Of a stretch of 64,000 nucleotides of DNA, positions 3,091-48,962 are shown one piece after another. The position numbers were made by a program, and so were the translations under genes. The DNA comes from an uncultured Lachnospiraceae bacterium (GTDB lineage: Bacteria; Bacillota; Clostridia; Lachnospirales; Lachnospiraceae). The DNA lies in contig CALAEX010000066.1 in the NCBI GenBank assembly GCA_937891165.1, forward strand, positions 1,242 to 65,241, given 5' to 3'. Numbering within the stretch: position 1 is the first letter of the stretch; every line of letters begins with the position of its first letter. The notes under the pieces are model-generated. The model searched no databases, was not told the DNA's origin, and saw nothing but the letters and a program-made list of their open reading frames with translations.

Positions 3091-3091
3091 A

Positions 3092-3142
3092 GTAAATATA
3101 GTTATGGGTGGAGATAATATCAAGAGCCCGGAGGTAATTATG
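3092..3142 (+). repeat. ~50-nt translation-initiation module shared with 7969-8022
   Basis: gtaaata..ATGGGTGGAGATAAT..ATCAAGAGCC(C/T)GGAGGTAATTATG is nearly identical at both loci. It includes the GGAGG RBS and the ATG at 3140. Confidence 0.8.
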
Positions 3143-12374: not shown

Positions 12375-13622
12375 ATGAAAGAGAAGTACAATCTTAAAGA
12401 TGCCCTAAGAGCGTGTGACCTAGAATATCTGGATGACCGTTCTATAGAGGGTAAAGGAATGCTTACAACACCGCAGTATATCAATAGTATGCGAAGTGTT
12501 ATGTTTGCATCGCATTTAAACCAGTTTAAGAATATGGTACAACCAGATTTTCCTCAGTTCTTTACTGGTGGTGAAAATGTGGTTGGTAAGTATTCGGACG
12601 GTTATTTGAAACTTAACGAATCTACTGTATATAGAAAAATTGTTAAGTTTGAAGGATTAGTAGAAAATCCGACCGTATATGTTTTGTTTGTGTATAACAA
12701 AGTAAAGAAACGATTTGAAGTTATTAGACGAAAACCGAATGAAGACTTAATTGAAGTATTTGGATATAAATACGATAATACAGTCATTGACTCCTTTAAA
12801 GAAGGAGATGAAATTAGTGAAGACACTATAGCATTTAAGTCTACTTCCTATGATGAAAGTATGAACTATTCGTATGGGCGAGATGTCATCACACAGTTAT
12901 CTTTTGAACCGTTTACATCAGAAGATGCAGCTATCGTATCAGAAGAAATTCAAGACCTTCTTAGAAATGTAGAGGTTGAAGAAAATATTGCTACATTGAA
13001 TGAGAATGATTTTCCTCTTAATATTTATGGAGACGACTTAGAGTATAAAACATTTCCAGATATCGGGGAATTTTCTAAAGGTATCATTATGGCTACTAGA
13101 AGAAAATTTAATAATCAGGTCTTGTTTGATTTTAAAGAAGATATGCTTAGTAAAGTAACAGACACCGATACTAGATATTATCTGAATGGTAAAGTTGTTG
13201 ATATTGAGATTTATTGTAATAACGAGGATTTACAGGATAACTCATTTTATCATCAGATTTATAACTATTGGTGTTATCAGAATGCTTACTATAAAGATAT
13301 TAAAAGAACTTGTGAAGAGATTATGAATTCAGGAGAAGACTACACAAGGGATATTGATTATCTTTATAAACAAGCATGTTACATGTTAGACCTTAAAAAG
13401 AAATGGAAAGAAAAAGACAATGCTTTCTCCAATGTGCAAGTACATATCCTTGTGGAGAGAGAAATACCATTAGCAGTAGGACAGAAAATTTCGGGTCGTT
13501 ATGGAAATAAATCGGTAATATCTGATATTCGTAAGAAAGAAGATATGCCATTCTATTATGATGCTAATGGTAATAAAGTTCATGTACAGCTTATACTATC
13601 AGTGCTAGCTATTATAAACCGT
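12375..13622 (+). CDS. RNA polymerase beta subunit C-terminal half, exon 1 of 4
   Basis: SMRSVMFASHLNQ (compare NRALMGANMQRQ). GQKISGRYGNKSVISDI (compare GDKxAGRHGNKGVxS). Ends at ...LAIINR (compare PSRMN). 5' splice site: P1 aaaccgT (13616-13622) with Gcggttt (13633-13639). Confidence 0.9.
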
Positions 13623-14762: not shown

Positions 14763-15287
14763 ACAACAGCAGCCGTTATTGGGGAATTGGCTACGAACTT
14801 TATTGGAAAACGAGTTAGTGCTCATATGAAGACTCTTAAGACTATGAAAGAAAAAGAGAAAATATTATTTGATGTTCTTAAGATGTACAATGTTGCCTAT
14901 TGTGAATTCTTGACTAAGAAATATAAAGCAATGACTACAGAGGAGAAGAAGAACTTTTTACAGTACTGCGAAGATGTTAAGATTCACTTTAATCAACCAT
15001 CTATGGGTGAAAAAGAACCTATGTTTTATCGTATTATGAATCTGAAGGAAAAATATAAAGATATTTTGAATCCAGATGAAATGTGGGTTCATCAGTTTGG
15101 TAGAGATATCCGTTGTGTTATGGATGGATATATTGCCAATATGTATATTATTACTCTGAAACAAACAGCGAAGAAAGGTTTCTCAGTAAGAGGAATTGGT
15201 GCTGTTAGTGCTAAGGGTATACCGGAAAGAAGTTATAAATCAAAATCTCATAAAGATTTATATTCATCAACCGCTATTAGATTCGGT
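14763..15287 (+). CDS. RNA polymerase beta C-half, exon 2 of 4
   Basis: Begins TTAAVIGELATNFIG (compare NIGQILETHLG) and ends ...AIRFG. 525 nt, in frame. The Met at 14760 in the track is intron sequence. Confidence 0.88.
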
Positions 15288-15511: not shown

Positions 15512-15526
15512 GAATTCGAAACGCTT
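15512..15526 (+). CDS. RNA polymerase beta C-half, 15-nt micro-exon (EFETL); 3' end tentative
   Basis: RFG|EFE restores the universal beta RFGEME motif. The last 6 nt, acgctt, pair with gggcgt (15534-15539) as P1 of intron 4. Confidence 0.6.
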
Positions 15527-15772
15527 AGAAATTGGGCGTCATACACAGAGATGTGTATTGCTTAAACCTCTTTAATTGCTGGAACCTCTTTAAGTAGACA
15601 ATCAGCAGCGAAGTTCGAAAGGAAACGTTCAACGACTATCGAAAGACTATTGAAAAATAGAATCGAGTAGAGTAGGAGAAATCCGAAACGGGAGGTATCT
15701 GTAAAAGATAAAGATATAGTCTGGCTATATATGAAAATATATAGGTTAATTAGCAATTTCTGTATTGCAATG
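15527..15772 (+). mobile_element. group I intron 4 (subtype A, no ORF)
   Basis: Full core (ttaaacctctttaattgctggaacc..gacaatcagcagcg..gttcaacGACTATcgaaag..ccgaaacgggagg..agatATAGTCtgg). Candidate P1 at 15521-15526/15534-15539, P2 hairpin atacac/gtgtat (15541-15558). 3' end gcaatG|cag matches intron 2 (gcaatG|aca). The 5' boundary is less certain than the 3' boundary. Confidence 0.75.
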
Positions 15773-16300
15773 CAGCCAGAAGAAGTTGCATTAATCCATG
15801 CATTTTACCGCACTTCAGTAAAAGCACGAAGAGACTTTGGTAAAGCCTTACTTAATAATGAACCTATTATTACAGTAGGAAAAACTTATGAATCCAGAGT
15901 AGCTGAGTTCTTCGAAATCATTTTAAAATCGTTAGGATTTAGATTAGAATTCTTAGATTCTGATGATGATTTTGTAGAACTTAGTGTAGATGATTTACAG
16001 TGGTTTGAATTAGCAAATGGTAAATCAGTATTCTGTTCTGAGTATGATAAATATATTATTGATCGTAGAAATGAGATTGGTGCTGAAATCTTAGAAGAAT
16101 ATGGTGCATTAAATATTGATGAATTGAATGAGATGATTGATGACGAAATTAAAGACAGACAGTATTTTATTGCTAGTGATATAAAAGACGTTTATTTGAA
16201 TTGCGTTGAAATTGAACCTACATTAGTGAGCAGAGATATTGTATCTTGTGAAGAGATTTCTAGTCAGTTAGAATTAATTGACGTTCCGGTGGAAGTTTAA
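15773..16300 (+). CDS. RNA polymerase beta C-half, exon 4 of 4
   Basis: QPEEVALIHAFY... (compare EMEVWALEAYG / EMERDCLIAHGA). ESRVAEFFEIILKSLGF (compare PESFKVLIKELQSLG). The joined 4-exon ORF is 2316 nt and in frame. Confidence 0.85.
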   Translation, partial: QPEEVALIHAFYRTSVKARRDFGKALLNNEPIITVGKTYESRVAEFFEIILKSLGFRLEFLDSDDDFVELSVDDLQWFELANGKSVFCSEYDKYIIDRRNEIGAEILEEYGALNIDELNEMIDDEIKDRQYFIASDIKDVYLNCVEIEPTLVSRDIVSCEEISSQLELIDVPVEV

Positions 16301-23334: not shown

Positions 23335-23404
23335 TCCCTATTTTCAGTGAAAAACCGACCTGGAAACATTTTTGTAAGACTTCTAGATGAAAGGAAGTGA
23401 CAAA

Positions 23405-26400
23405 ATGGCGGGTAACGAAATCAAGGTTTCAAATACCTATAAGCAGAAAAACGGAGCTAAGCTAAATGCGCAATGGCTTAGAAACGCTACAAGATCATTA
23501 GGTTCGAACTCAATGTCTGTATTACAAGACATTAGCCCTAATATCTATAATGCTGCAGAAAGTGCAGTTGCTGTTACAAAAGCAATCCGTCGTACCAAAG
23601 TATCTTCTAATACTATAGCAAGAGCTATGGATAACAATAAGTATGTGAAGATGGGTAAGCGTGCTCTTAGTAACGCAATGAAAGATTTAAAAAGTGGAAA
23701 CTTCAATAATACAACACGAGGTAGTGGTGGTTCTGAAGATGTAGATACGACATATCATTTTGGTGATGATAGTGAATCTTCAGGTAGTGAAGGTCAAATC
23801 CACACAACGATAAACTTTAATCCAGAAGGGTTAAATAATATCAATAACTCAATTGTGCAACAAACAAAATACCAGATGCAAGCATCTCAGGCAAATATTG
23901 ATACTATGGTTGCAACATCGAGTGCAATGATGGCAATGAACCAGAGAAATGCAGAAGCATCTTTAAATATGTTAAATAATATTAATAATAGCTTACAGGC
24001 TATTATTAAATATAATAACGAAAATATGACAAAATTCATCACTTCTAGTATGACATACTATGAGATGATGGGTAAAGCATACACATCAACTGAAAAGAAA
24101 AGAGATGAAAAAATAACAGGAACGGATCTTGTTGATAAGAGGGGTAACTTATCCAAGGGTAAATTATCAGCGATATTAAAACAAAATCTAAAAGCTGCAT
24201 ATCAAGAATCTCAGCTTGGTGGTATGCTTGAAATGGTGGATAACTTCTCTGATGAAATCGTGAAGAATCCATTATCTTTTGTAACAAAACATCTGATTGA
24301 AAAATCTATTCCGAAAGCATTAAAAGAATCTACAAAGCAGTTAGATAAAACGTTTGGTAACTTTGTTACTGAAATGCTGCTTCGCACTTCTAAGAAACTT
24401 ATGGATAACCCTGGAGAACTTGGATTAAAAGGATTCCTCGGTAGAGTATTAAATATCGATGTAGAGCGTACAAAAGAGTTTAAATTTGCAGGTAAAATCA
24501 ATACCGATGCTGCTAAATTCGACAAAATAACGCATCATGCTATATCTGCAGAGATACCTAAATATCTTAGGGAAAGTACGGCATACTTGAGACAACTTGT
24601 TATGTTAAATGGAGGAGACCCCGAGAGAGCTCTTAAAGGTTCTCAAATATTTAACAGAGATACTGGTTCTTATGAACGTTACGGTGATTTTGGTAAATAC
24701 CTTTTAGGTTCTATCAATACTGCTGTAACTAGAAGTATGCGTGAATCCGATTTTGGTAAATCTTTAGATAAAGTTGGACGTAGTAATCTTGTAAAAGATA
24801 GCCAGAAAGATGCTTACGATAAATTATTAGACAACTTCTTTATTGCTTTAGAAAGAGAAGAAGGAAATGTTGACATCTCTAAACGTGGTGAAGATAGTGA
24901 TGTTTCTAGAATCATGGCTAGTTTGTCTGGAGATAAAGGATTAAAACGAATTCTAGAAGAATCTGTTTATGCTTCCTTTGCTAATGGACGTGCTGGTATG
25001 GGTGTTAACGCAGCAAGACTTCATGCAAAGTCTGCTCGTAATAAACGTATTTCTGAATTAGAAGAAACTAATTTAGCAGAATTATCTGGGCTGGTAAAAA
25101 CTGACCAGACGATTGATGATGCGTTAGCTTCTGTTCTTTATGGAACAGACGGCAAAACTACAAGAACTCAAAGTTACACTCCAACCTCTATGCTTGGTAG
25201 ACTATCTACCATCGAAAGATTATTGGATAGAGGTATCAACGTTCAAGTAGTTGGCAACGAAGGATTCGAATCTATTCATAAAGGTGTTCGAGGTCCTAAA
25301 ACTGATAGAAAAAATGACGCTACTCCAAGTAATCGTCCAACAGAAGGTGATGCTTCTGATATTTCAGCTGAAGATTTGGCTAAAGGTATTAATGATGCTA
25401 TGGGTGATGTAGCCTCTACTGATAATAGCGGTAAAGGAGGATTTATCATCAATGCTCAAAACCATATCGGTAATATTATGCATCACATCGTTCGTGGTGA
25501 TACTAGTGCTATTTATGCTGAAATGGGTGCTATGTTTGGTTCTGGACTTATGAGTCTTGGACAAAAAATGAACGATTCTGTTTTAACTCCAATGAAGAAA
25601 TTTATCTTTGGAGAAAAGGATGGAAAAGAATTCTCTATTACTGGTAAAGTAAAAGAGATGTTTGGTAATTTAAAATCCGATATGGCTGAGTTTGTTCTTG
25701 GACCTAAAGGAGAAGATGGAAAACGTGATGGAAAGAAAGCTACCGTTATGGGATTTTTACATGAAGGTATGGAATCCATGGCGAAATCTCTCTTTGGTGA
25801 AGAGAAATCTTTCGATGAGATTAAAGAACAGATTCGACAGAAAGTACAAAAAAATTCTGAAACTGGATTAAAAGGTGCAATCATTGGTGGTGGTCTTGGA
25901 CTTGCTAGTGGAGGTATATTAGGTACTTTAGTGGGTGGTCCTTTAACTGGAGCATTCCTCGGAACTGCTACAGCAATTGCTTCCAAATCAAAAGGATTCC
26001 AGAAATTCGTTTTTGGTAATGTGATTGATGATGAAGGTAATGTTGTTGAAAAGACTGGTAAAGGATTAATTTCGGATGCAACTCAGACTTTCTTTAAAGA
26101 CCATAAATCTGATATCGTAGGAGCTGCTGGTATTGGTGCTGTTGGAGGCATGTTAACTGGTGGTGGTTTACTTGGAACTATGGTTGGTGGTCCGCTTGCT
26201 GGAGCATTACTTGGTTCTGCAGTAGGAATTGCTAAGAATTCCAAAACATTCCAAAAGTTTGTATTTGGTGAAGAAGTTACTGATGAAAAAACTGGTCAAA
26301 AGAAAAAGATTGGTGGTATTTTAAGTGCCTTCAATAGAGCATTCAGTGATGCAAATCCACAGAACAAAAGACCAGGACGTGAATTAGTCGCTCGTGGTAC

Positions 26401-29400
26401 TGTAGGAGCTGGAGCTGGTTTACTTCTTAGTATGTTCACCCCACTTGGACCAATTGGTGGGGCTGCTTTAGGACTTGCTGGTTCTATGGTTGCTTCTAAA
26501 GACAAGTTCCATGAACTTCTTTTTGGTAAAGAAGAAGATAAAGGAAAAGGTACCAATGAAGGTTTAGTGAATAGATTAGGTGCTCAAATTTCTAAAACCG
26601 TCGTAGCACCTTTGGCAAATATTGCTAAAAATGCTTTAATGGATGTTAGAGATGCTGTCTTTGATAAAGTATTGTCTCCTATCGTAGATTTAGCAGAACC
26701 ACTTGCTGGTATGGCTAGGAGATTATACGATAAAGTGGAAGAAAAAGTATCTGGTGTTTTTGATACTTTGAAATCTAAACTTTTTAATGTGGCGAAAGGT
26801 ATCGGTAACTTATTTAGAGCTGGAATCAATAAAGTTTTAAATAGAGATAGTGATAAACCTAGTCTTATTGGTGGTGCTTTAAATATTATTAGTGGTGGTG
26901 CTAGAAAAGCTAGCGATGTAATGAGAGCTAGCAATGCCAAAGCGTCATCTAAGAAATGGTTTGATCCATCTTTTAGAACCACAAATGAATTTAAAGATAA
27001 ATATCAGGCAATGATGACCGAATGGGATAATTTAAGTCCTGAAGAAAGACAGAAATTCAAATCACTTAAGAATTTCGAAAAAGAATATGCCAAACGTGCT
27101 TTCTATTATGGTGGTAATAGTAGAAGTGCTATGAGAAAATCTGCTGAAGATAGAAAGAAAGATCGTTTAGAGAGACAAGCTGAACAGAAAGAAATTACCA
27201 ATCGTGAAAACTTAATTACGCGTCTTACGGGTGGAAAATACTCTACCGATAGTGAAGAAGCTAGAAAAGCTGCTTTGGATGCTTATAAGAAGAGTCGTGG
27301 TTATAAACGTGGTAAAGGTATGGCTGGATTTGATGACGCCACAGTTCAGAAATTATTATCACCAATGACTGCTCAAGGTGCAACAGTTGAAAATGAACAA
27401 CTTGATGAATTAAAAGAGCAGAATAGTAAGCTTGATAGTCTTATTGGTGGTGTAGCTGCTATCATAAGCACTATTACAGGTGCTCCTGTAAGATTAGCAA
27501 AAAGTGGATTTAAAACGTTTACTGGTGGTATTAAAGATACAATCAATGAACGTAGACAAAGTAAAGACGACCACGATGCCATGATGGATGACATCATGAA
27601 TAGTTCTCGTACTACTGAGAATTGGATTCGAATGGAAGGTGAAAAAGCTTTCAATGGAAACAGAAAAGATTTCAGTTTCCATATTTCGAAAAAAGAATAT
27701 AAACGTCTTAAACGTTATTCCAAAAATCCAAATAGTGTCTATTATCAGATGGCTAATGAGATTTTGGATGAAAACGCTGATCCAGAAAGAAGAAAACGAT
27801 TATATGAAGATTATCTTAAAGGTAGAGAAGAAAGAAAACAAGAAAGACAGGATGCTCGTGATACTCATGTAGGAAATATTAGACGTGCTTATAGAAATAC
27901 CAATGACATTATTCGTGGTGGATATGCTATTGGTACAAAGAATGCTACACCTGGTGTTCATCGTGTCGGCGAACAAGGAGTGGAGCTTATTTATTTTAAT
28001 GGTGGTGAAAGAGTTTACTCTAATAATGAATTACTTAATGTAAGACTTGTTGATGTAGAACCTAATGCCGCTAAAGTAATGAATACTAATGGAGAACAGA
28101 AAGTTGTTCTCGTTGGACAGAATGGATTACTTGCAACTTATGGAACAACTGCCAGACTCGATGCTAAGACAGATAATAAATCCAGAATTGAAAAAGCATT
28201 AAAAGACCCTAAATCCTTAATCAGTTACGACTGGGTTAAATCTGATAATGGTGACGATGATGGAGGAGATGGTGGTGACGGAGGAGATGATGACGAAAAG
28301 AAATCTCTTCTGGATAAATTAGGAGAAGTTGCAGGAAATCTTGGAAAAGCTTTACTTGCAGGTGGTGGAATTGCTGCTTTATTTAAACTTCTCAATAGTG
28401 AAAAATTCCAAGAGTTCTTAGAGAACTTTGGTGTGGTAGCAGAACGTTCTGCTGAAACTGTAGGAGAAATGAATGATATTGGCGGAAACACTGGTGGAAC
28501 GGATATTCCTACAGCAACTGGAAATGTAATCAGTAGATTGCTTAGTGGATATTTCTTTACAGATAAAGAAGGTAATGTAGATGGTATAGGAAAATCTTTA
28601 ATGAGGGGTTCTAGACAGGTGATGAAAACTGCTCTATTCGGCAGAAGTTTTAGACCGATGGATATCATTAAGCATCCATTCAAAACCATCAAAGGAATAC
28701 CAGATGCTATTAGTAAATTAAAACACCCGATTAAAAATTCCACATTCTATCAACAGGTTAATGGTGGATCAAAAGTTGTTAAAGGTTTCTTATCCGGTGG
28801 AGTCGATGAAGCGAATGAATATGTTGTTGAAACTGTGAGTAATATGACTCGTAAAGGTAAAGGTCTATTTGGTAATACTAACTTAATAGACATAATGAAA
28901 GAGAAGAAACCGACACAAGCAGCGGACAATGTAGTTGACTTTGCTGCCGAACGAGCTAAACGAGGAGCTGCCCAAAAAGGAACGCAAAAAGCGGTTCAGG
29001 AGGGTGCTCAAAAAGCTGCCGTTGAAGCGGCACAAAAAGCAGCTGTTGAAACTGCACAAAAAACCACACAAGAGGGTATTCTGGAATTTTGTGAAAAAGC
29101 TATCAAAGAAGCTATGCAAAATATTACACAGTCTTTAACTGAGAGACTTGGTAAAACTTCTGGTGGTAAAATTGTAAAAGCGTTAGCTACAAAAACTGAT
29201 AACGTTATTAAACTTTTGAAAAAAGCTACTGTAGGTCCATTGGCTGAATTTGTAGGAAAGAAACTTGCTAAACTTGGTACTTTTGTCGGTACTAATGCTG
29301 CAGTTGCTGCTACTGGTATCGGTGTTCTTGGTATCTTGGCAAAAGATGCTATCTGGATGACTTGTGGAGCTATTAACAGTGCAGGAAAAGGTGGGGCTGC

Positions 29401-32266
29401 AAGACTCTTTAAATGTGAACAAGATGCTGTTGACTGGAAGATGAGATTAATCGCTTCTTCAGTTGCCGCACTTGCTGAAACAACACCTGGTACTGTAGTA
29501 GATATTATAAATGAAATTGTTGTTGCTTGTTGTAGTTATGACTTCATTTGCGACTTTGCAACATCAATATATCTTACATTATCTAACGACGAAAAAGATA
29601 AAATACTTCTTAACTCCCAGAATGCTTTAAAAACTGATTATAAAGCATACCATGAAAGTACTTTGGAAAAAGAATGGAACGCTTGGAAAACAGATGGAGT
29701 TGATGAAGATAAATCATTGACTTTGGATCAGTTTAAAGAAAAAGTTAAAACTGGCAAAATCCAAGCAGACATTATGAGCTTTGACGAATACAATGATGAT
29801 GTTAATAAGACATTCGGTGCACATGCTTGGGATGCTACTGTTGGAGTAGCAAAAGACTTTGCAAAAGCTGCATCAAATATGGGGGTTTCTAAAACAACCA
29901 CAACCAATGCTACTGTAACTGGTGCAAATACATATAAAGCTTCAAACTATACAACTGGTACTGCAACAACAAGTTCTACCACATATAGTGCGAAACCTAA
30001 TATGGGTATGGGTTATGGTGGAAGAGGTAATATACCATTTTATTCACAAAAAGACCCTAGATGGAGCATGATGCCTTATGAACAAGGTGGTTATGGCGAA
30101 ACTATGGGTAATGCAGGTTGTGGACCTGCTGCATTTGCGATGGCTGCTTCTGGAGCCGGAGCTAAAATTGACCCAGTTCAATCTGCTATGTTGATGAAAT
30201 CGGTTGGTGCTAGAGACCATACTGGAACTAACTGGAATGGAATTAACGCTGCTGCAGGAAGAATTGGACTTAACTCAGTAATGAGTAGAAACCCATCTAC
30301 ACAATTTGTAGATTCGCAGTTAGCTGCTGGTAAACCAGTAATTCTTTCTGGTCGTTCTGGTGGATATGGTGAAAATACTCCATTTACTTCACAAGGGCAT
30401 TATGTCGTAGCAACTGGTAAAGATTCCAATGGTAATTATATCATTAACGACCCTAACTATAGGGGAGGACAATCAAGACGTTATAACAAACGTGATATTA
30501 TGAGAGAAACTGGAGCCGCTTGGGGCTTTGGTGGACGCGGTTTAGCTGGTGAAGGAAACGGAGCTATAGATAGAAAAGAATACAATAAAATTGTAGAAAA
30601 AGAAAGAAATCTTGAAAAATGGATTAGTATCTGTAGAGCAGTTAAACAAATTATTGCAAACTATGGTGTAGGGTATAGTACTTCAAATCATGTAGATGTA
30701 ACACTGGATGGAAAAACCGTTAAGAACAGAACCGACTGTTCCGGATATGTTTGTACATGTCTTAACTTCTATGGTATTGATAATCCGGGTTGGATGAAGT
30801 TTACAGATATGAGTAACTCTACATTATTAAATGCTGGTTTTGCACCACAAAGATTCCAATCATTCGATGGGCTTAAAGAAGGTGATATTGTTGCCAACCC
30901 TAAACATGTAATGATTTTTGCATATACACAAAATGGAAAACGTTTCTATTATAACTGCGGAAGTGATAATAGTAACAACAGTCCAACACCAACAGATTAT
31001 ACATCATTCAACCCTACAGTTATCTGGAAACCAGGTGCTGAAGGTGCTGCTGCTATTTCTAATGTAGTAGGTGGCGAAATGGGTGATGTGAGCTATGGAG
31101 CAAATAGTGGAACAAATAGTACGACAAGTACCGGTTCTTCTGCACTTGGATTCTTTGGAAAGATTTCCACATTCTTCTCTGAACTTGGAAATAGGGCAAT
31201 TGAAGGTATCACAACTGGAAATTGGAATATGGACTGGTCTGGAGTATTTGATAGTGGAGCCACTTCTGGTGGAGCTTATACAGGTTCTTCATGGAATGGT
31301 ACATCTACAGGAATAAATCCTTCTGCAGCAAAAGGTGTTGTAACCGGTAGTGCTGATGAAAAAGAATTATTTGAGAAATTAACCAGTAGTGCTTTCGGTC
31401 TTACAAAAGCTGGAGCTTCTGGACTTATGGGTAATCTTTATGCAGAATCTGGTCTTAAACCAAATAATATGGAAAACTCATACGAATCTAAATTAGGATT
31501 AAATGACATTACCTACACCAATGCGGTAGATAATGGAAGTTATACTAACTTTGTTAATGACAGAGTTGGTTATGGATTGGCTCAGTGGACATCTGCTGGT
31601 AGAAAACAAGGATTGATTGATCTTGCTAGAAGAAAAGGTCATTCTATCTCTAGCACAGATGTACAAACAGAACACTTGATAAATGAACTTAAGTCCAGTT
31701 ATAAGAAAACATACGGCATTCTTACTACAACAAATAATGTACGTGAAGCATCCGATATAGTTCTTCATGACTTTGAAAGACCTGCAGATCAATCTGCAGC
31801 AATGGAAGAAAGACGAGCTTCTAATGGTATGGCATATTATGAAAAATATGCTAATATGTCTGATACAAATACTGATATGACAAAGAAAGATTTCATCAAT
31901 ACTATCGAAGCCGATAAGGCTACTGGTGGTTATGGGGATTCTGTTTATACAAGTATCAATAATCCTAATAAAAATACATTAAAATACCAAGAAGGTGGAC
32001 ACGGTACTGCTAACGATGAAAGTGTTATAGTTTATCTTAAACAAATCCTTCAAGTACTGGGAGAATCTTCTGATAAGTTAAATGCATTGAATTATTTGAA
32101 AAACATCAGTAATTCAGCGGGAGGTAGAGGAGGAAATGTGACTAATAATACATTTATTGGTCAAAAGAACCCATCTCCAGTAAAGCATAGTGAACCTATC
32201 CCAATTCCAAAAACAGATTCTGCTAAATATACAATCGCTCAAAAGATTGCAAGAGGTGGTTTATAA
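23405..32266 (+). CDS. giant virion-associated protein (~2953 aa) with three peptidoglycan-hydrolase-type domains, tape-measure/ejection-protein-like
   Basis: ATG at 23405 follows AAAGGAAG; the track start 23387 is in frame. Domains: C39-like peptidase (~30030-30480: YSQKDPRW..GNAGCGPAA..GHYVV), NlpC/P60-like (~30600-31000: RTDCSGYV..HVMIF), tail-lysozyme-like (~31360-31800: GLMGNLYAESGL..GLAQWT). Three Gly-zipper TM repeats lie at ~25860-26530. Confidence 0.8.
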   Translation: MAGNEIKVSNTYKQKNGAKLNAQWLRNATRSLGSNSMSVLQDISPNIYNAAESAVAVTKAIRRTKVSSNTIARAMDNNKYVKMGKRALSNAMKDLKSGNFNNTTRGSGGSEDVDTTYHFGDDSESSGSEGQIHTTINFNPEGLNNINNSIVQQTKYQMQASQANIDTMVATSSAMMAMNQRNAEASLNMLNNINNSLQAIIKYNNENMTKFITSSMTYYEMMGKAYTSTEKKRDEKITGTDLVDKRGNLSKGKLSAILKQNLKAAYQESQLGGMLEMVDNFSDEIVKNPLSFVTKHLIEKSIPKALKESTKQLDKTFGNFVTEMLLRTSKKLMDNPGELGLKGFLGRVLNIDVERTKEFKFAGKINTDAAKFDKITHHAISAEIPKYLRESTAYLRQLVMLNGGDPERALKGSQIFNRDTGSYERYGDFGKYLLGSINTAVTRSMRESDFGKSLDKVGRSNLVKDSQKDAYDKLLDNFFIALEREEGNVDISKRGEDSDVSRIMASLSGDKGLKRILEESVYASFANGRAGMGVNAARLHAKSARNKRISELEETNLAELSGLVKTDQTIDDALASVLYGTDGKTTRTQSYTPTSMLGRLSTIERLLDRGINVQVVGNEGFESIHKGVRGPKTDRKNDATPSNRPTEGDASDISAEDLAKGINDAMGDVASTDNSGKGGFIINAQNHIGNIMHHIVRGDTSAIYAEMGAMFGSGLMSLGQKMNDSVLTPMKKFIFGEKDGKEFSITGKVKEMFGNLKSDMAEFVLGPKGEDGKRDGKKATVMGFLHEGMESMAKSLFGEEKSFDEIKEQIRQKVQKNSETGLKGAIIGGGLGLASGGILGTLVGGPLTGAFLGTATAIASKSKGFQKFVFGNVIDDEGNVVEKTGKGLISDATQTFFKDHKSDIVGAAGIGAVGGMLTGGGLLGTMVGGPLAGALLGSAVGIAKNSKTFQKFVFGEEVTDEKTGQKKKIGGILSAFNRAFSDANPQNKRPGRELVARGTVGAGAGLLLSMFTPLGPIGGAALGLAGSMVASKDKFHELLFGKEEDKGKGTNEGLVNRLGAQISKTVVAPLANIAKNALMDVRDAVFDKVLSPIVDLAEPLAGMARRLYDKVEEKVSGVFDTLKSKLFNVAKGIGNLFRAGINKVLNRDSDKPSLIGGALNIISGGARKASDVMRASNAKASSKKWFDPSFRTTNEFKDKYQAMMTEWDNLSPEERQKFKSLKNFEKEYAKRAFYYGGNSRSAMRKSAEDRKKDRLERQAEQKEITNRENLITRLTGGKYSTDSEEARKAALDAYKKSRGYKRGKGMAGFDDATVQKLLSPMTAQGATVENEQLDELKEQNSKLDSLIGGVAAIISTITGAPVRLAKSGFKTFTGGIKDTINERRQSKDDHDAMMDDIMNSSRTTENWIRMEGEKAFNGNRKDFSFHISKKEYKRLKRYSKNPNSVYYQMANEILDENADPERRKRLYEDYLKGREERKQERQDARDTHVGNIRRAYRNTNDIIRGGYAIGTKNATPGVHRVGEQGVELIYFNGGERVYSNNELLNVRLVDVEPNAAKVMNTNGEQKVVLVGQNGLLATYGTTARLDAKTDNKSRIEKALKDPKSLISYDWVKSDNGDDDGGDGGDGGDDDEKKSLLDKLGEVAGNLGKALLAGGGIAALFKLLNSEKFQEFLENFGVVAERSAETVGEMNDIGGNTGGTDIPTATGNVISRLLSGYFFTDKEGNVDGIGKSLMRGSRQVMKTALFGRSFRPMDIIKHPFKTIKGIPDAISKLKHPIKNSTFYQQVNGGSKVVKGFLSGGVDEANEYVVETVSNMTRKGKGLFGNTNLIDIMKEKKPTQAADNVVDFAAERAKRGAAQKGTQKAVQEGAQKAAVEAAQKAAVETAQKTTQEGILEFCEKAIKEAMQNITQSLTERLGKTSGGKIVKALATKTDNVIKLLKKATVGPLAEFVGKKLAKLGTFVGTNAAVAATGIGVLGILAKDAIWMTCGAINSAGKGGAARLFKCEQDAVDWKMRLIASSVAALAETTPGTVVDIINEIVVACCSYDFICDFATSIYLTLSNDEKDKILLNSQNALKTDYKAYHESTLEKEWNAWKTDGVDEDKSLTLDQFKEKVKTGKIQADIMSFDEYNDDVNKTFGAHAWDATVGVAKDFAKAASNMGVSKTTTTNATVTGANTYKASNYTTGTATTSSTTYSAKPNMGMGYGGRGNIPFYSQKDPRWSMMPYEQGGYGETMGNAGCGPAAFAMAASGAGAKIDPVQSAMLMKSVGARDHTGTNWNGINAAAGRIGLNSVMSRNPSTQFVDSQLAAGKPVILSGRSGGYGENTPFTSQGHYVVATGKDSNGNYIINDPNYRGGQSRRYNKRDIMRETGAAWGFGGRGLAGEGNGAIDRKEYNKIVEKERNLEKWISICRAVKQIIANYGVGYSTSNHVDVTLDGKTVKNRTDCSGYVCTCLNFYGIDNPGWMKFTDMSNSTLLNAGFAPQRFQSFDGLKEGDIVANPKHVMIFAYTQNGKRFYYNCGSDNSNNSPTPTDYTSFNPTVIWKPGAEGAAAISNVVGGEMGDVSYGANSGTNSTTSTGSSALGFFGKISTFFSELGNRAIEGITTGNWNMDWSGVFDSGATSGGAYTGSSWNGTSTGINPSAAKGVVTGSADEKELFEKLTSSAFGLTKAGASGLMGNLYAESGLKPNNMENSYESKLGLNDITYTNAVDNGSYTNFVNDRVGYGLAQWTSAGRKQGLIDLARRKGHSISSTDVQTEHLINELKSSYKKTYGILTTTNNVREASDIVLHDFERPADQSAAMEERRASNGMAYYEKYANMSDTNTDMTKKDFINTIEADKATGGYGDSVYTSINNPNKNTLKYQEGGHGTANDESVIVYLKQILQVLGESSDKLNALNYLKNISNSAGGRGGNVTNNTFIGQKNPSPVKHSEPIPIPKTDSAKYTIAQKIARGGL

Positions 32267-35993: not shown

Positions 35994-37427
35994 TTATTCA
36001 ATTCCTCGAATTTCTCTTCTTTTCTTACCACCATTATCGGTACCATAAATTTCACTCATATTAGGAACTTTGCTCATGAGCAATGGATCGATATATGATG
36101 TACCAGTTCTTTCAGTAACAATTTCATCACTAAGTAACTGACGTTTGATATATTGTACAGATAATCCAAGACCTGGAGATTTATTATCTTCCAATGCTTT
36201 TCTTACTGTAATGATTGTATATGGTTCTAATTTAGTTCTTGTAAAATCAGGTCTATCGTATGTATTGATATCACTACGAACTAAACGGTTGATAATACAT
36301 TCTCCTGCTAAGCTAGATGCTTTGATTCCGGATTCTACCAACAACTCTACAAATCTCTGTGTTACTTCAGATATTGTCTGAGGTTCACCATCTTTTCTAT
36401 TTCTATTGAGAAGGTGCATCATAGAGTACAATGGTTTAGTCAATTCATTGTTAAGAATATCCATTTCTAAGATTTTAACAGAGTCGTCCAAATCTTTAAA
36501 TTTGATATATCCACGACTCTTACTCATAAGAGCTAATGCTTCATCAGTAATAAAGATTTCTTTACCCTCATTTTCTAATTGAATCTTATCCATTTCACCA
36601 GTTTCCATGTCAACCACATAGAAAATTCCACCGGCAATGAATGTATTATAACCATTCTGAGAGTCGAACTCATCTACTTTCTCAATTACATTTGTTGGAA
36701 TGTAAATTGCATATTTGTTGATATCTTCAACTTCATCATTTTCATCTACATTTGGATACACTTCTCCAGATGATAATGTAAAGTATTTGTCAAAGGCATC
36801 GTTGAATCGCAAAACTTCTGATTTTGTTGTAAGAAGATGTTTTGAGGAAAGAACGTTTTGCTCTAATTCTTTTGTCACTTCTTCTGATTCAAAACCTGCA
36901 GCACCAGCAGCAATATCATAATTAAGACCAGCAGTTCTACCAAAACATTTAGCACATACATGGTCTCCAAGAGCACATGTTACTGGAGAACGTAACCAAA
37001 TAGTTTCTCCAACTAAATGCTTATCTTTCTTAGCATTAAGAAGCTGCAATTCATCATCACCATCTAATTTATAGTAACGATTATTAAACTTCTTAAGAAT
37101 CTTTTTATTTGAAATATGAATTGGTAACAAATGTTTTGTATCACAGTCTGATATTGTTGTTGATAACTTAAGCGTCTTTGCTAACTGAAGAACCAGCTTA
37201 CCAAAGTTTCCTGCAAGACCCATAACTGTCTTATTTAAGATAAGAGATTTTCTTGCAGCGGAAGCATCAATATATACATAAGATGGTCTATCAAGTCCTC
37301 TAATAAGTGTAGAGTTTTCAATAGCTACTGGCATAATAACACCATCTAATGTAGGTTTTAATCCTTGGGCAATTGTAAATTCTGCGAACTGTTTCGTTAA
37401 TATTAATACGAAGTCGTTACTTTCGTA
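35994..37427 (-). CDS. RNA polymerase beta' subunit C-terminal half, exon 2 of 2
   Basis: FTIAQGLKPTLDG (compare MRGLMAKPDG). ASAARKSLILNKTVMGLAG (compare THGARKGLADTALKTANSG). RSPVTC..VCAKCFGRTAG. The track start (TTG at 37430) is the intron 3' end. Confidence 0.85.
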   Translation of the reverse strand, partial: YESNDFVLILTKQFAEFTIAQGLKPTLDGVIMPVAIENSTLIRGLDRPSYVYIDASAARKSLILNKTVMGLAGNFGKLVLQLAKTLKLSTTISDCDTKHLLPIHISNKKILKKFNNRYYKLDGDDELQLLNAKKDKHLVGETIWLRSPVTCALGDHVCAKCFGRTAGLNYDIAAGAAGFESEEVTKELEQNVLSSKHLLTTKSEVLRFNDAFDKYFTLSSGEVYPNVDENDEVEDINKYAIYIPTNVIEKVDEFDSQNGYNTFIAGGIFYVVDMETGEMDKIQLENEGKEIFITDEALALMSKSRGYIKFKDLDDSVKILEMDILNNELTKPLYSMMHLLNRNRKDGEPQTISEVTQRFVELLVESGIKASSLAGECIINRLVRSDINTYDRPDFTRTKLEPYTIITVRKALEDNKSPGLGLSVQYIKRQLLSDEIVTERTGTSYIDPLLMSKVPNMSEIYGTDNGGKKRREIRGIE

Positions 37428-37687
37428 CAAGTTATTTCTAACTTCTTTATATTCCTATAAAGACTAGACTATATCACTATCCTATTATTCATTACAAGTA
37501 ATAGGATACCTCCCATTTCGAACCCACTTGAGTTCTACTCTACTAAGTTCTTTATAAATTATTCATTTATAAATCTTTTCGATAGTCGTTGAACCATTAT
37601 TTTGGCTGCTGATTGTCCAATGAAAGAGTTTCCAGCAATTAAAGAGGTTTAAGCAGCATACATTTCTGTATGAGAGCACATTGTTTT
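37428..37687 (-). mobile_element. group I intron 9 (subtype A, no ORF)
   Basis: The - strand reads ttaaacctctttaattgctggaaactc..ggacaatcagcagcc..gttcaacGACTATcgaaaag..ttcgaaatgggagg..gtgatATAGTCtag. Candidate P1 is agcaT/Gtgct, and the P2 hairpin catac/gtatg matches the architecture of intron 4. Boundaries are inferred from frame plus P1. Confidence 0.75.
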
Positions 37688-38392
37688 ATGCTTAATTCCA
37701 GTTCTCGCTTTCAATATAGTACCAATTGGATTACCCGGATCATTTTTATATATCTCCAATTCTTCTTCCAAATATCTATCTATTGTATCTTCAATTTCAT
37801 GTGGTGGCATGGATTCAGGGAATCTACATTCCATAATCTCTTTTACCCTGGGGTACTTCTGATACATATCCGTAAACGTGAAATATGAGAAATTGAGATT
37901 CATAATTAACGAGAAATCCAATGAGATACCACGCAATCTATTACAAACATCAGATACAGATTGGTTAATAGTGATTTCTTTTACATTGAAATCTCGAAGA
38001 GTCATAATAATTTTTTCATTAATCCATGGGTCCAAATCATATTCAGGTTCTAACATAAATTTTGTTCCATCCATGACATATTTATCATTTAAGAACTTAA
38101 TTGAATTTACGTGAACGAATGGCTCCCATAATATTAAGTTAATTATAAAGTGTCTAAGCTGAACCGTATAGGTTTGTTTGTCATCGCTATAGAACTTAAA
38201 TGTAACAGGATATTCTCGACATTCTTTTTTCTCGATACATCCTTTAATAATTGAGTACATCTTCTGAAAGAAATCTTCATAAATTTCAATCGTTGTCATA
38301 TAGTACTCCAATGTGTAACAACTCTGAATGAGCTGTCCCAGATCATAAGTATTTTCAATGACTGGGATTTCATAAGTTTGTTGTTTTCCCAT
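37688..38392 (-). CDS. RNA polymerase beta' subunit C-terminal half, exon 1 of 2
   Basis: AAGGAG RBS. 705 nt, in frame, ending ...ILKARTGIKH (compare ..SGARG). The track tail KTMCSHTEMYAA* is read-through into the intron. Confidence 0.8.
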
Positions 38393-45898: not shown

Positions 45899-45905
45899 AG
45901 AAATT

Positions 45906-45940
45906 GAAACTGTATACTTCGGTATACAGTTTCTTTTTTA
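45906..45940 (+). terminator. intrinsic terminator
   Basis: gaaactgtatac-ttcg-gtatacagtttc followed by T6. Confidence 0.85.
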
Positions 45941-46013
45941 TGTTTTTACTCACATATTAGTAAAGTTAAAGTATTTTCTTTTTTGTAATATATCTTTAAA
46001 TTTTAGATTTAGA

Positions 46014-46023
46014 GATATATTAT
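46014..46023 (+). promoter_or_regulatory. promoter-like motif GATATATTAT
   Basis: Lies 50 nt upstream of the ATG at 46073. Confidence 0.4.
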
Positions 46024-46072
46024 TTTTATGTGTATAACGCATAAAAATATAATTGAAAGGAGTAAATTTATA

Positions 46073-46938
46073 ATGGGCAAAAAGAGAGCTGAAGTAAAAC
46101 GTCTTAATTTTGACGTAGAAGCTTATAATGATGTCATTAATGGTAGAGGGTTCTTTGTTGTAGATCCGCCAGAAGTAGATATCGATGAGACCAGAAAGAA
46201 AGCTTTGTATGGTCCGCAATCGCCATTATATGGAAGCACCTTCTCTGATGAGCAGTCCTTCCAAGAACGTTACCGTTGTAAATGCGGTGAGTTCAAAGGA
46301 ACTATCTTTGAGGGGGAAACATGTCCGAAATGTAATACAAAAATCGAATTTCGTGATGTAGACCCTTACATGACAGGATGGATTCCTCTTGGTGCTAAGA
46401 AAATTATCGCACCACATTACTACCGTATTTTACAACAAGCTATCGGTAGAGAAGTTTTCCCAGAAATTATTTTCTTGAAAATGAAAGTAACAAAGAATGG
46501 AAGACGAGAAAAATTAACGGAAGAAGAGATGAAAGAATTCGAACCTAAATCTCCATTTTATGGAATTGGGTTAGAAGAATTTAGAGAAAGATATTTTGAG
46601 ATTATTGATTATTTTAAGAAGTTAAAACCTGCAAAAGCAGAGACTTTTGACCGTCTTAGAAAAGAGGTAAACTCTGTATTTACATCTCATATTCCTGTAT
46701 ATACCACATTACTTAGACAGCAGTCAGTTACCAGTGAGAACTTCTATTTTACCGGTATTGATAAACAGATTAATACTTGTGTAAACTTAGCAAGAAACTT
46801 ACGTGATTCGGAAGAAATTGAAACACCAGTTATCTTAAATAGAATTCAGTCCAGAGCAAATGCTATTTGGGAAGCTAACTTTGAGCTTCTTAACACAAAA
46901 GATGGATTAATTCGTGATCAGTTGATTGGTGGGTCGCT
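46073..46938 (+). CDS. RNA polymerase beta' subunit N-terminal half, exon 1 of 5
   Basis: ATG follows AAAGGAG. Zn-ribbon CKCGEFKG..CPKCNTKIE (compare rpoC CxCG..CxxC). Ends ..RDQLIGGS + ct. P1: ggtcgcT (46932-46938) with Ggtgacc (46948-46954). Confidence 0.9.
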
Positions 46939-47218
46939 TAACAGTTGGGTGACCTTAAACCTATCTAACTGCGGGAACGTATTGAAAGGGATTAATTACC
47001 AAATCATATCAGTAATGAATATGATGGCAAAGAGTAACTACCTTTGGTATGGTAAAAAGATTAATCACTAATATAATCCGCAACGAAGACTCTTTCATTA
47101 GAGTAACGCTCAACGACTATCGAAAGACTATTTTTATTAAAATAGAATCGAGTAGAGTAGGAGAAATCCGAAACGGTAGGCAATCTAAATATTAGATTGA
47201 AGATATAGTCTAAATATG
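46939..47218 (+). mobile_element. group I intron 5 (subtype A variant, no ORF)
   Basis: P1 as above. P10: agttg (46943-46947) with caact (47219-47223). Core: gctcaacGACTATcgaaag..ccgaaacggtagg..gaagatATAGTCtaa. The omega G is 47218. Confidence 0.88.
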
Positions 47219-47252
47219 CAACTTTACAGCACGCAATGTCATTGTTCCCGAT
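47219..47252 (+). CDS. RNAP beta' N-half, 34-nt micro-exon (L)NFTARNVIVPD
   Basis: Restores GGSLNFTARNVIVPD (compare GKRVDYSGRSVIxxxP). The last 7 nt, tcccgaT, pair with Gtcggga (47266-47272). Confidence 0.88.
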
Positions 47253-47680
47253 TGATCAAACGTAGGTCGGGATTAAACCTCTTTAATTGCGGGAACGAAT
47301 TTTATAATAATACTTACTAAATTATGATAGTGATATTATAATGGCAATGGGTAATTCCAAAGGTATAGTAAAAAAAGTATTATTTTAATCAATCCGCAGC
47401 TAAGCTTCTTGATTTAAATATAATATAAATGGAGGTGATTTATTGAATGAATTTGAATTAAAAGTCAATTTAGAATTGTATTCATTAAATGATTTGGATT
47501 TAGAGATTTGGAAAAATATAAATCAAGAAGAAAGTTCAACGACTATCGAAAACATAGTGTAAGAGAAATACTTATATGAAGAAGTGAGTAGAGTAGGAGA
47601 AATCCGAAACGGGAGGTATTGTATATCTGGTAATAGGATATACTTTAAAGATATAGTCTAATAATAATTTATTATTATTG
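47253..47680 (+). mobile_element. group I intron 6 (subtype A) with a degenerate homing-endonuclease remnant
   Basis: P1 at 47246-47252/47266-47272. Core: ttaaacctctttaattgcgggaac..aatccgcagc..gttcaacGACTATcgaaaac..ccgaaacgggagg..agatATAGTCtaa. The omega G is 47680. Confidence 0.88.
47443..47562 (+). pseudogene. remnant of an HNH-type homing endonuclease N-terminus inside intron 6
   Basis: GGAGGTG RBS followed by a 39-codon ORF (LNEFELKVNLELYSLNDLDLEIWKNINQEE...) that runs into the P7 core. EIWKNI resembles EKWRKI in the 13725 endonuclease. Confidence 0.4.
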
Positions 47681-47999
47681 CCATCATTAAAAGATAACCA
47701 AGTAGATTTGGGTTATAGCTGTTTTTATGTAATGTTTAAATTAAAGATTATCCATTATCTTATGAAGATTCATGATATTTCATTAGCGCAGGCTAATAGT
47801 ATTTGGGAGGAAGGATATTCTTTCGATCAAAGAATTTATGAAATCATGAAAATGATTATTGAGATTGAAAAGCCATCTGTTGTAATCAACAGAAATCCCA
47901 CACTCAATTACTATTCAATCATTTTAATGGATATACGTCAGGTAAAACCTGATAAGGATTGCTATACATTAGCAGTTCCATTAAGTATATTACCTGGGT
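47681..47999 (+). CDS. RNAP beta' N-half, exon 3 of 5
   Basis: PSLKDNQVDLGYS.. (compare P.L.L.QCGLP). VVINRNPTLNYYSI (compare LLNRAPTLHRLGI). Ends ..AVPLSILPG + t. The track Met at 47678 is intron sequence. Confidence 0.9.
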
Positions 48000-48291
48000 A
48001 AACAAATCTGCAATTGCTCAGGTTAAACCTCTTTAACTGTCTGGAAGTTATCAATACATATAAGTTACTAAACTAAGTAGAAATATATTAGTGATAGTGA
48101 AAATATTTATATGTGATATAATCAGCAGCGAAGATTCTTTAAGTAGAATAACGTTCAACGACTATCGAAAAGATGTATATGTGAATAACGTATATAGAAC
48201 TTAGTAGAGTAGGAGAAATCCGAAACGGGAGGTATTAAGTATCTTGTAATGAGATATTTAGTAAAGATATAGTCTAATAAAATATTTATTG
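48000..48291 (+). mobile_element. group I intron 7 (subtype A, no ORF)
   Basis: P1: cctgggT (47993-47999) with Gctcagg (48016-48022). P10: ctgca (48008-48012) with tgcag (48296-48300). Core: ttaaacctctttaactgtctgg..aatcagcagcg..gttcaacGACTATcgaaaag..ccgaaacgggagg..agatATAGTCtaa. The omega G is 48291. Confidence 0.88.
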
Positions 48292-48308
48292 TAAATGCAG
48301 ACTTCGAT
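48292..48308 (+). CDS. RNAP beta' N-half, 17-nt micro-exon (L)NADFD
   Basis: ta aat gca gac ttc gat completes ILPG-L-NADFD. Nt 48302-48308 form P1 of intron 8. Confidence 0.9.
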
Positions 48309-48540
48309 AAACCCGAAAGTCTCTGTCGAAGTAAAACTTCTTTAATTGCTGGGAACTCTTTAAATAGACAATCAGCAGCGAAGCTCTTAATAGAGAACGT
48401 TCAACGACTAGCTTTTATAGCGTAGGATACTATAAAATCTTTTAGTATTCGAAATGGGGAGCAACGAAAGTTGAAGATATAGTCTGATACCTTTAGGAAT
48501 AAAGGAAAGTGAATTCTAGATAAGAATTGTAAACGTAACG
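48309..48540 (+). mobile_element. group I intron 8 (subtype B, no ORF)
   Basis: P1: cttcgaT (48302-48308) with Gtcgaag (48325-48331). P10: gtctct (48319-48324) with ggagac (48541-48546). Core nearly identical to intron 3. The omega G is 48540. Confidence 0.9.
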
Positions 48541-48711
48541 GGAGACATTTTAAATATCATTGGAATTATGGACCCTGCTATCAAACATATGTTTAGAAAG
48601 TTTAATCCTATTAAATATATGATTACATCAAGAGATAGTGGATTACTCAATGATTATTTTGCAGTAACAAAAGGTCAGAAGATTGACTTATTCAACTTCT
48701 GTCATATGTAA
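48541..48711 (+). CDS. RNAP beta' N-half, exon 5 of 5
   Basis: Begins GDILNIIGIMDP, completing NADFD|GD. The joined 5-exon ORF is 1407 nt and in frame, with the stop at 48709-48711. Confidence 0.9.
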   Translation, partial: GDILNIIGIMDPAIKHMFRKFNPIKYMITSRDSGLLNDYFAVTKGQKIDLFNFCHM

Positions 48712-48720
48712 AAACTTTTA

Positions 48721-48760
48721 TTAGTGTACTAGGTATTTATCTAGTACACTAATATTTTTT
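48721..48760 (+). terminator. intrinsic terminator
   Basis: ttagtgtactag-8 nt loop-ctagtacactaa followed by tatttttt. Confidence 0.8.
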
Positions 48761-48779
48761 GAAGAAGGTGATATAAATT

Positions 48780-48962
48780 ATGACAACAGAATTAGTACCA
48801 ATGGAATTCTTAACTAGAATAAAATTAAAACTACTAGTAAATTATATGAACTATGTAAGTATTCATCACACATATCAATTTACCAATAAAAATGAAGTTA
48901 CTATTCATCTTGGAAAAGTTGAAATGGGTGTGATTGAAATAATAGTTAGAAAGGACGAATGA
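48780..48962 (+). CDS. hypothetical small protein
   Basis: AAGGTGA RBS and 60 codons. Overlaps the next gene by 4 nt. Confidence 0.5.
   Translation: MTTELVPMEFLTRIKLKLLVNYMNYVSIHHTYQFTNKNEVTIHLGKVEMGVIEIIVRKDE

Follow-up and report, generated by a model that had tools for sequence, protein, structure and literature searches.

Four predicted group I introns in a jumbo-phage RNA polymerase beta' gene, two of them bracketing a 17-nt exon of the metal-binding motif

In a 64-kb stretch of DNA (contig CALAEX010000066.1 of assembly GCA_937891165.1, filed under an uncultured Lachnospiraceae bacterium; hereafter the window), a gene that appears to code for the catalytic beta' subunit of a phage RNA polymerase (RNAP) lies in pieces, and the question it raises is how the active-site loop of such an enzyme could be made from it. 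The region concerned, 46073-48711 on the forward strand, consists of five stretches of coding sequence with four inserts between them. The inserts are 280, 428, 292 and 232 nucleotides (nt) long and take up 1232 of its 2639 nt. The best explanation, which we regard as very probably correct as a whole, is that this is a gene for an N-terminal beta' subunit (beta' N) with four group I introns that are removed by splicing and were acquired as selfish elements.

Joining the segments as join(46073..46938, 47219..47252, 47681..47999, 48292..48308, 48541..48711) yields 1407 nt and 468 amino acids (aa) in one frame, with a single terminal stop. All four upstream exons close with T, and all four inserts close with G, the terminal guanosine looked for in a group I intron. 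Exon 1 (46073..46938, 866 nt) has AAAGGAG ahead of its start codon, encodes aa 1-288 and 2 nt of Leu289, and matches the intronless open reading frame (ORF) of a relative, L001, colinearly; its 3' end, GGGTCGCT, is also the 5' strand of the P1 helix of intron 1. The three internal exons measure 34, 319 and 17 nt. Exon 2 (47219..47252) finishes Leu289 and goes on with NFTARNVIVPD, exon 3 (47681..47999) runs from PSLKDNQ through NRNPTL to SILPG and the first nt of Leu407, and exon 4 (48292..48308) is a micro-exon, TAAATGCAGACTTCGAT, that finishes Leu407 and encodes N-A-D-F-D. Exon 5 (48541..48711, 171 nt) opens with Gly413-Asp414 and reads GDILNII...FCHM up to the stop; intron 4 lies between Asp412 and Gly413. 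All of these features are on the forward strand.

The joined protein matches PF00623 (E 2e-9) and aligns without gaps across all four junctions with the beta' N subunit of the non-virion RNAP of phage AR9 (PDB 7S00_d, E 3e-34). Further matches are to phiKZ 7OGP_A (E 2e-14) and, over aa 270-417, to cellular beta'/gamma subunits. Two features by which a beta' N subunit is recognised are present, namely double-psi beta-barrel homology with NADFDGD and the end of the gene shortly after this motif. From its sequence, we take the product to be the N-terminal beta' subunit of a jumbo-phage multisubunit RNAP; the sole ground for placing it, provisionally, in the non-virion set is that the AR9 non-virion enzyme is its best match. 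Between the beta' N exons and L001, pN is 0.127 and pS is 0.73, and the gene is therefore under purifying selection. The original prediction had drawn the same five-segment join, which is borne out to the nucleotide by the ORF itself, by the relatives L001-L003 and by the AR9 alignment, and its proposal that the 468-aa product should align with other beta' subunits across the junctions held as well.

NADFD is encoded only once in the window, in all frames, by the 17-nt exon at 48292-48308, and no contiguous D[FY]DGD occurs in any frame of the 64 kb, which agrees with the earlier claim that NADFDGD is assembled only by splicing. Without splicing, the continuing frame meets a stop immediately at intron 2 (TGA, first codon) and at intron 3 (TAA, arising from the split GGG T/AA; a slash marks a splice or insertion site here and below). 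In intron 1 it stays open for 44 codons and in intron 4 for 37, as read from the sequence. The ORF fragments of the unspliced gene are a 332-aa read-through, a 107-aa and a 47-aa piece. The junction peptides of the joined product are GGSLNFTAR, VIVPDPSLK and SILPGLNADFDGDILNIIGIMDPAIK, a tryptic peptide that spans the junctions of both intron 3 and intron 4.

These stops bear on whether the inserts might be something other than group I introns, such as inteins, insertion elements, programmed frameshift sites or the product of an assembly chimera between repeats. Stops interrupt the continuing frame within every insert, and inteins are therefore excluded. The introns do repeat one another, which can confuse assemblers, and the 5' halves of intron 4 and of an intron in a second gene (intron A, below) are 98% identical; against a chimera, however, the identical stretches extend over only about 50 nt and three of the four introns stand at identical sites in independent assemblies. 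The inserts are matched by covariance models, and their boundaries are exact to the nucleotide, with U at position -1, a terminal G, P1 and P10 pairings and a restored frame. We consider it vanishingly improbable that they are not group I introns.

Natural alleles allow the gene to be compared with and without its inserts. In three IMG/VR contigs of up to 279 kb (L001-L003), the gene is an uninterrupted 1407-nt ORF, 85% identical at the aa and 75% at the nt level and gapless to the join, and an Rfam intron search of these three contigs returned none. Closer alleles were drawn from ENA and Logan assemblies, among them L137 (Logan SRR28154399, an independent sample) and L130 (ENA ERZ28019177 k141_2138475); together with L129, these provide an intron-minus allele for every junction at 92-97% nt identity to the window. 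L129 (96% nt) is precisely without intron 1, its exons 1 and 2 being contiguous, and has intron 2. In L137 (95.5% nt) exons 2 and 3 are fused, with no intron 2, and intron 3 is found at the identical site, and L130 (93-97% nt) reads straight through sites 3 and 4. Comparison with both sets of relatives thus agrees with a precise removal of the inserts that restores the frame. Intron 1 occupies the same site in L130 and L133, and intron 2 does so in L129, L130 and L134, so introns 1, 2 and 3 are each polymorphic for presence or absence at a fixed site; for intron 4, whose site is uninterrupted in L001 and L130, the relatives are intron-minus only. Synonymous variants in the flanks, from which P1 and P10 are formed, are common to the intron-plus alleles (GGGTCGCT/.../CAACTTTACA versus GGCTCATT/GAACTTCACC in L129), a pattern that co-conversion during homing would be expected to leave.

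The L130 gene (433-5202) is likewise interrupted by four introns, three of which carry endonuclease genes and not all of which sit at the sites used in the window. They are introns 1 and 2, the latter with an HNH gene, an intron at NPT-L with a NUMOD4 ORF (3021-3716), and one GIY-YIG intron at NAD/FDGD that stands in place of introns 3 and 4 of the window.

The proposal that all four inserts are group I introns was confirmed by covariance models and by reading of the sequence, as well as by the intron-minus alleles. Rfam RF00028 matches intron 1 (46939..47218, 280 nt; 52.4 bits, E 9e-12) and intron 4 (48309..48540, 232 nt; 74.4 bits, E 2e-18), both above the gathering score of 50. A second covariance model, R1, describes the 3' half of the intron and was trained on introns 1, 3 and 4 and two beta-gene introns. 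It matches intron 2 (47253..47680, 428 nt), which is not a training member, with an E value of 4.8e-12, and gives 89 bits for intron 3 (48000..48291, 292 nt), which is one; in the window it has exactly nine matches at E <= 1, four of them outside the training set. Identical core strings are common to all four introns and to five further elements of the window: AAACCTCTTTAAYTGC (P3, J3/4, P4), AATCMGCAGC (P4'), GTTCAACGACTA (J6/7, P7) and AAGATATAGTCT (J8/7, P7'). The P7 strands lie at 47115-47119 and 47206-47210 in intron 1 (which ends in ...AAATATG), at 47541-47545 and 47654-47658 in intron 2, at 48160-48164 and 48270-48274 in intron 3, and at 48406-48410 and 48480-48484 in intron 4.

Minimum-energy folding, with only the P7 strands held open, gave P1, P3, P4, extended P5, P6, P7.1, P7.2 and P8 for introns 1-3, with a P9 hairpin in introns 2 and 3 and a long branched P5 extension in intron 1; intron 4 has P9 and a hairpin in its 3' tail. 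In all four folds the two hairpins P7.1 and P7.2 follow GACUA and precede the 3' strand of P3, which assigns the introns to subgroup IA, the type that phages usually have. P7.2 covaries, with GGAUACUA and UAGUAUUC as its strands in intron 4 and GGACUUAA and UUAAGUUC in intron A (read directly). We therefore read all four inserts as group I introns sharing one IA-type core. This core is generic and not diagnostic, since the 18-mer GTTCAACGACTATCGAAA is found in more than 120 IMG/VR contigs; blastn with intron B of the beta gene matched 193 GenBank phages, including AR9, PBS1, BpSp, phiKZ-like and T4-like phages.

At each of the four 5' splice sites the cognate P1 has 7-8 contiguous pairs closed by U.G, as had been claimed, against 1-6 pairs in non-cognate combinations. 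The P1 guides of introns 1 to 4 are GGTGACC (46948-46954), GTCGGGA (47266-47272), GCTCAGG (48016-48022) and GTCGAAG (48325-48331), and the P10 guides of introns 1, 3 and 4 are AGTTG (46943-46947), TCTGCA (48007-48012) and GTCTCT (48319-48324), all on the forward strand. For these last three introns (numbered 5, 7 and 8 at the time), a P10 immediately 5' of the P1 guide had been predicted. It is found directly there in intron 1 (5 bp, CAACU with AGUUG) and in intron 4 (6 bp, GGAGAC with GUCUCU, GGAGAC being the first 6 nt of exon 5), but in intron 3 the 6-bp pairing (UGCAGA with UCUGCA) is displaced, by 3 nt on the guide side and by 4 nt on the exon side. Both short exons are engaged at either end: nt 1-5 of exon 2 (CAACT) belong to P10 of intron 1 and nt 28-34 (TCCCGAT) to P1 of intron 2, and nt 5-10 of exon 4 belong to P10 of intron 3 and nt 11-17 to P1 of intron 4. 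The P1 helices had also been offered as independent support for the junctions. They are present, but taken alone as a chance test P1-like hairpins do not discriminate in AT-rich DNA (24 observed versus 14.2 in shuffles), and they count as evidence because they are placed exactly at junctions that were fixed independently. In L134, an exon change from CCC to CCG is matched by a guide change from GUCGGGA to GUCCGGU, a compensatory pair in P1 of intron 2.

Several observations weigh against a gene with four functional introns. The Rfam search that had been suggested as a check succeeded for introns 1 and 4, but intron 3 reaches only 32.7 bits with RF00028 (E 7e-6), under the gathering score, and intron 2 is unmatched by this model because its P6 loop carries an insert of about 120 nt. 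The P9 hairpin is absent from intron 1, intron 2 is without a P10, and the minimum-energy fold of intron 4 favours an alternative over the canonical P1 and P3, although the canonical pairings are still available. Between the end of exon 4 and the guide of intron 2 a 6-bp pairing can form, which makes some mis-splicing conceivable, and if translation is coupled to transcription, ribosomes entering the open frame of intron 1 could disturb its folding. Lastly, the intron 4 site and the arrangement of intron 3, exon 4 and intron 4 were found in the window only, and a scan of JGI metagenomes gave no match to the exon-4 junction 22-mer. Searched by protein, the JGI metagenomes yielded no relative; megablast of 45900-48900 against GenBank phages gave no match, the phage being absent from that collection, and a scan of IMG/VR for the exact 27-mer GAGTAGAGTAGGAGAAATCCGAAACGG found none.

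The weak or absent Rfam scores of introns 3 and 2, the peripheral elements missing from introns 1 and 2, and a full four-intron configuration not met with in other samples would also be compatible with a crippled allele, in which the introns are real but one or more of these reduced elements splices poorly, beta' N being effectively a pseudogene in a genome of low fitness. We regard this as very unlikely. All catalytic-core strings are intact and near-identical to those of paralogues that pass the gathering score, independent samples have introns 1, 2 and 3, with conserved cores, where the window has them, P1 covaries with the exon, and the exons are free of frameshifts and stops. The window, moreover, has no second copy of the catalytic motif, and the beta' N gene should therefore be essential. 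Inteins, an assembly chimera and a pseudogene were all considered, and each was rejected on the evidence given with it.

With all four introns removed by splicing, as we favour, the following course would be expected. Every intron would fold on its own in the pre-mRNA; an external guanosine would attack after the U of the P1-closing U.G pair, and the freed 5' exon would then attack after the terminal G, with P10 aligning the 3' exon for introns 1, 3 and 4. Four such events would give the 1407-nt mRNA, and all four would be needed for an active catalytic subunit. The 34-nt and 17-nt exons would each have three roles, in coding for an invariant motif, in P10 of the intron upstream and in P1 of the intron downstream. 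From the sequence we infer that splicing would proceed independently of proteins, and its efficiency and order are likewise predictions.

Splicing could instead be regulatory or alternative, with the micro-exons sometimes skipped or with four serial events setting the amount or timing of the polymerase. Skipping is documented for a 23-nt exon of phage Twort and for a 34-nt exon of Coxiella 23S rRNA (PMC10136302), to be set beside 17 and 34 nt here, and the stray pairing of the intron 2 guide with exon 4 would be in keeping with it. However, loss of exon 2 or exon 4 shifts the frame and removes invariant motifs, leaving non-functional products; guides and P10s are distinct, and at only 34-52% identity the adjacent introns 3 and 4 are poor candidates for forming a hybrid ribozyme. 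Differentiated splice-site recognition elements are reported to enforce exon inclusion (PMC10136302). Close alleles do without each of the introns, and therefore none has an indispensable role. Overall, we judge a regulatory or alternative use of splicing to be unlikely. In the favoured course of four complete splicing events, the separate guide of each intron and the low similarity of introns 3 and 4 should favour inclusion of the exons over skipping.

An intron-encoded homing endonuclease was also looked for. No ORF is present in introns 1, 3 or 4, and intron 2 has only a 39-aa remnant (47443..47562, forward strand) in its P6 stem, with GGAGGTGA as ribosome-binding site. At the place of this ORF, L130 has a 215-aa ORF with HNH_3 and NUMOD4 domains (1804-2451); the alignment between L130 and the window breaks at 47523 and resumes at 47511, and about 556 nt are missing from the window. 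Judged by this alignment, the 39-aa ORF is a fused deletion remnant of an HNH homing endonuclease gene. Allelic or paralogous copies with endonuclease genes are those of L130 (HNH, NUMOD4 and GIY-YIG) and introns R and H of the window, which are HNH-type by eye.

The four introns belong to a larger set, as the window has nine homologous introns in 64 kb, eight of them in RNAP genes: four in beta' N, three in the beta C-terminal gene and one, on the reverse strand, in beta' C, the ninth being in a RecA-like gene. The beta C-terminal gene (forward strand) reads join(12375..13622, 14763..15287, 15512..15525, 15754..16300), 2334 nt in frame. It contains intron H (13623-14762), with a 284-aa ORF (13725-14579) of HNH-type look by eye only, and the tandem introns A (15288-15511) and B (15526-15753), between which a 14-nt exon, GAATTCGAAACGCT, encodes (G)EFETL. 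The join restores AIRFG-EFETL-NFCIAM, which matches AIRFGEYETLAIM in the relative L126. This 48%-identical relative has a group I intron of its own in the beta gene (6114-6455, Rfam 78.6 bits) at GHKFTG/RYGNKS, a site that is empty in the window. Intron R (about 9371-10631, forward strand) lies in the RecA-like gene (Walker A GKPSTSKTT), has its 3' splice site at 10631 or 10634 and holds a 286-aa ORF (9604-10464) that looks HNH-type by eye only. The beta' C intron (about 37431-37648, reverse strand) lies between ORFs 38392..37649 and 37430..35994. These last two, in the RecA-like and beta' C genes, were missed by Rfam at the gathering score and were found by R1 with E values of 2e-8 and 4e-8.

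The same crowding is seen among relatives. The beta' N family comprises 388 proteins at E <= 1e-10, mostly full length, and about 15 of the best 120 of these are truncated at intron sites. Mapping of the relatives gave at least 10 distinct insertion sites in three hot spots at conserved motifs. The first, GGSL/NFTAR/NVIVPD/, is occupied in the window, L133, L134 and L135, and the second, NRNPTL, in L130, L135 and P0030, with an insert at LNR/NPS in Staphylococcus phage LY01. Within the third, insertions are found at PG/L (window, L137), at L (+1 nt) (L138), at NAD/F (L130, L131 and five truncated proteins), at DFD/G (window only) and at DFDG/D or DFDGD/ (AR9, P0004, P0090). The insert of LY01 (L125, OR836606; about 2326-2486) is an unannotated stretch of about 160 nt that splits the beta' N homologue into two coding sequences labelled 'hypothetical protein'. 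It has the group-I-like motifs TAATTGCTG, AATCAGCA, GTTCAACGACTA and GATATAGTCTA and no Rfam match, and may be a strongly reduced intron.

Some of the window introns are patchworks of one another. Introns 4 and A, which lie in different genes, are 81.5% identical overall and, besides the 5' halves compared above, have a common 3' tail; their targets are AGACTTCGAT/GG in beta' and AGATTCGGT/GA in beta, and their guides differ by one base. Intron H combines a 5' half that has 92-94% identity to introns 4 and A with a 3' half 89% identical to intron 2, while the 3' half of intron 1 is 85% identical to intron B and its 5' half resembles intron 2. These mosaic halves suggest recombination among copies and ectopic spread within the genome.

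Elsewhere in the window, a 2959-aa ORF (23387-32266, forward strand) matches a PHROG endolysin family over aa 2652-2832 and probably acts as a lytic protein associated with the virion. PHROG matches are lacking for most of the other large ORFs in the window, and the phage is therefore only distantly related to those described.

As to origin, the introns that we believe to be spliced from the beta' N gene would have come by homing and ectopic spread of selfish elements into the most conserved codons of an essential gene, which by their conservation are also the least mutable targets, and their endonuclease genes would have been lost later. Much more tentatively, and with considerable doubt on our part, the endonuclease-less introns may be in an ongoing burst, spreading to ectopic sites complementary to their guides by reverse splicing or illegitimate homing, in an arms race between introns and endonucleases. 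The NAD/FDGD intron with a GIY-YIG endonuclease is common in the population. The two introns that bracket the NADFD micro-exon would break up the contiguous GIY-YIG recognition sequence, and the bracketed allele would therefore be immune. The stacking of introns in active-site codons would then be an outcome of this arms race, and it could also be a route to the fission of jumbo-phage RNAP genes, a link with introns that Lavysh et al. 2016 hypothesised, as quoted in PMC7598289.

Compared with known systems, the original prediction overstated the novelty of the locus and understated its precedents, which include an AR9 intron in the same motif, a 23-nt exon in Twort and 12-15-bp exons in fungi. 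RNAP genes of jumbo phages are, according to the literature, frequently split by introns. The orthologous AR9 gene g270 (KU878088) carries the annotation of a two-piece join with the HNH gene g271, and its intron, located at GGCGACTATGACGGT/AAGGCG... (DYDG/D), likewise interrupts the metal-binding motif, at a site 3 nt downstream of that of intron 4; it belongs to the same core family (TTTAAACCTCTTTAATTG..., GTTCAACGACTATCGAAA, GAGTAGAGTA). AR9, however, has one intron in this gene, which has kept its endonuclease; in the window there are four, all lacking an intact endonuclease gene, and a 17-nt exon is bracketed by two of them. The two beta' N proteins are less than 30% identical.

The coding sequence of orf142 of Staphylococcus phage Twort is reportedly about 430 nt long, which would mean a higher intron density per coding nt than here. 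According to PMC10136302, orf142 has three IA2 introns with a skippable 23-nt exon between introns 2 and 3, and resembles our case in having several introns in a short phage gene and a very short internal exon that serves both neighbours. Twort differs in that the function of the gene is unknown, introns 2 and 3 are highly similar and the exon is skipped; the gene described here would be that of a polymerase catalytic subunit, with four introns, a shortest exon of 17 nt and dissimilar adjacent introns, and its splicing is predicted. The 34-nt exon of Coxiella 23S rRNA likewise lies between two introns (PMC10136302). In gp210 of PhiPA3, an HNH intron follows two conserved aspartates of the RNAP beta gene (Birkholz et al. 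2024, PMC11620839). PhiPA3 and the window have in common a group I intron in a jumbo-phage multisubunit RNAP gene, right after conserved aspartates of the catalytic region, but PhiPA3 has a single one, in beta and not beta', with an active HNH endonuclease that acts in phage competition (PMC11620839).

High intron loads are known from Jug phages, with 18.5 introns per genome on average and metatranscriptome reads that support the splicing of 37 of 76 predicted introns (PMC12880540), and from the crAss-like Zeta group, with up to 14 introns per genome and an MCP gene in five fragments (PMC7886860). Many group I introns per genome and essential genes in up to five fragments are shared features, although these are other lineages and other genes (terL, nrdD, MCP, PolB) and the window is locally denser with its nine introns in 64 kb. 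The 12-15-bp exons between introns of Armillaria (fungal) mitochondrial genes (PMC6506933) indicate, as seen in cox1 and cob, that exons this short are compatible with splicing; in contrast to phage genes, those are organellar and often helped by maturases.

Each element of the finding has a precedent, and what is new is quantitative and combinatorial. The new points are four predicted introns in one phage polymerase gene, two of them bracketing the metal-binding codons; exons of 17 and 14 nt, below the 23 nt of Twort, the shortest phage example found in the literature; nine homologous introns within 64 kb; at least 10 insertion sites across the population, which gather in three conserved motifs and make a clear hot spot; and mosaic introns without endonuclease genes, which suggest spread within the genome.

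For annotation, the consequence is that gene callers see fragments only, so that a catalytic subunit is missed or labelled broken, and the problem extends to the beta and beta' C genes of the window. The locus and its natural alleles offer a compact system for the pile-up of self-splicing introns in the most conserved codons of an essential enzyme, and show how little exon sequence is needed to serve two ribozymes and encode a catalytic loop at once. With them one could examine whether introns that lack an endonuclease spread by reverse splicing, and whether intron occupancy shields against competing homing endonucleases. They also provide material for testing an earlier proposal, in which the split RNAP genes of jumbo phages go back to ancestors riddled with introns. 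The main interest lies in the natural allelic series and in the possible ectopic spread of introns that have no endonuclease.

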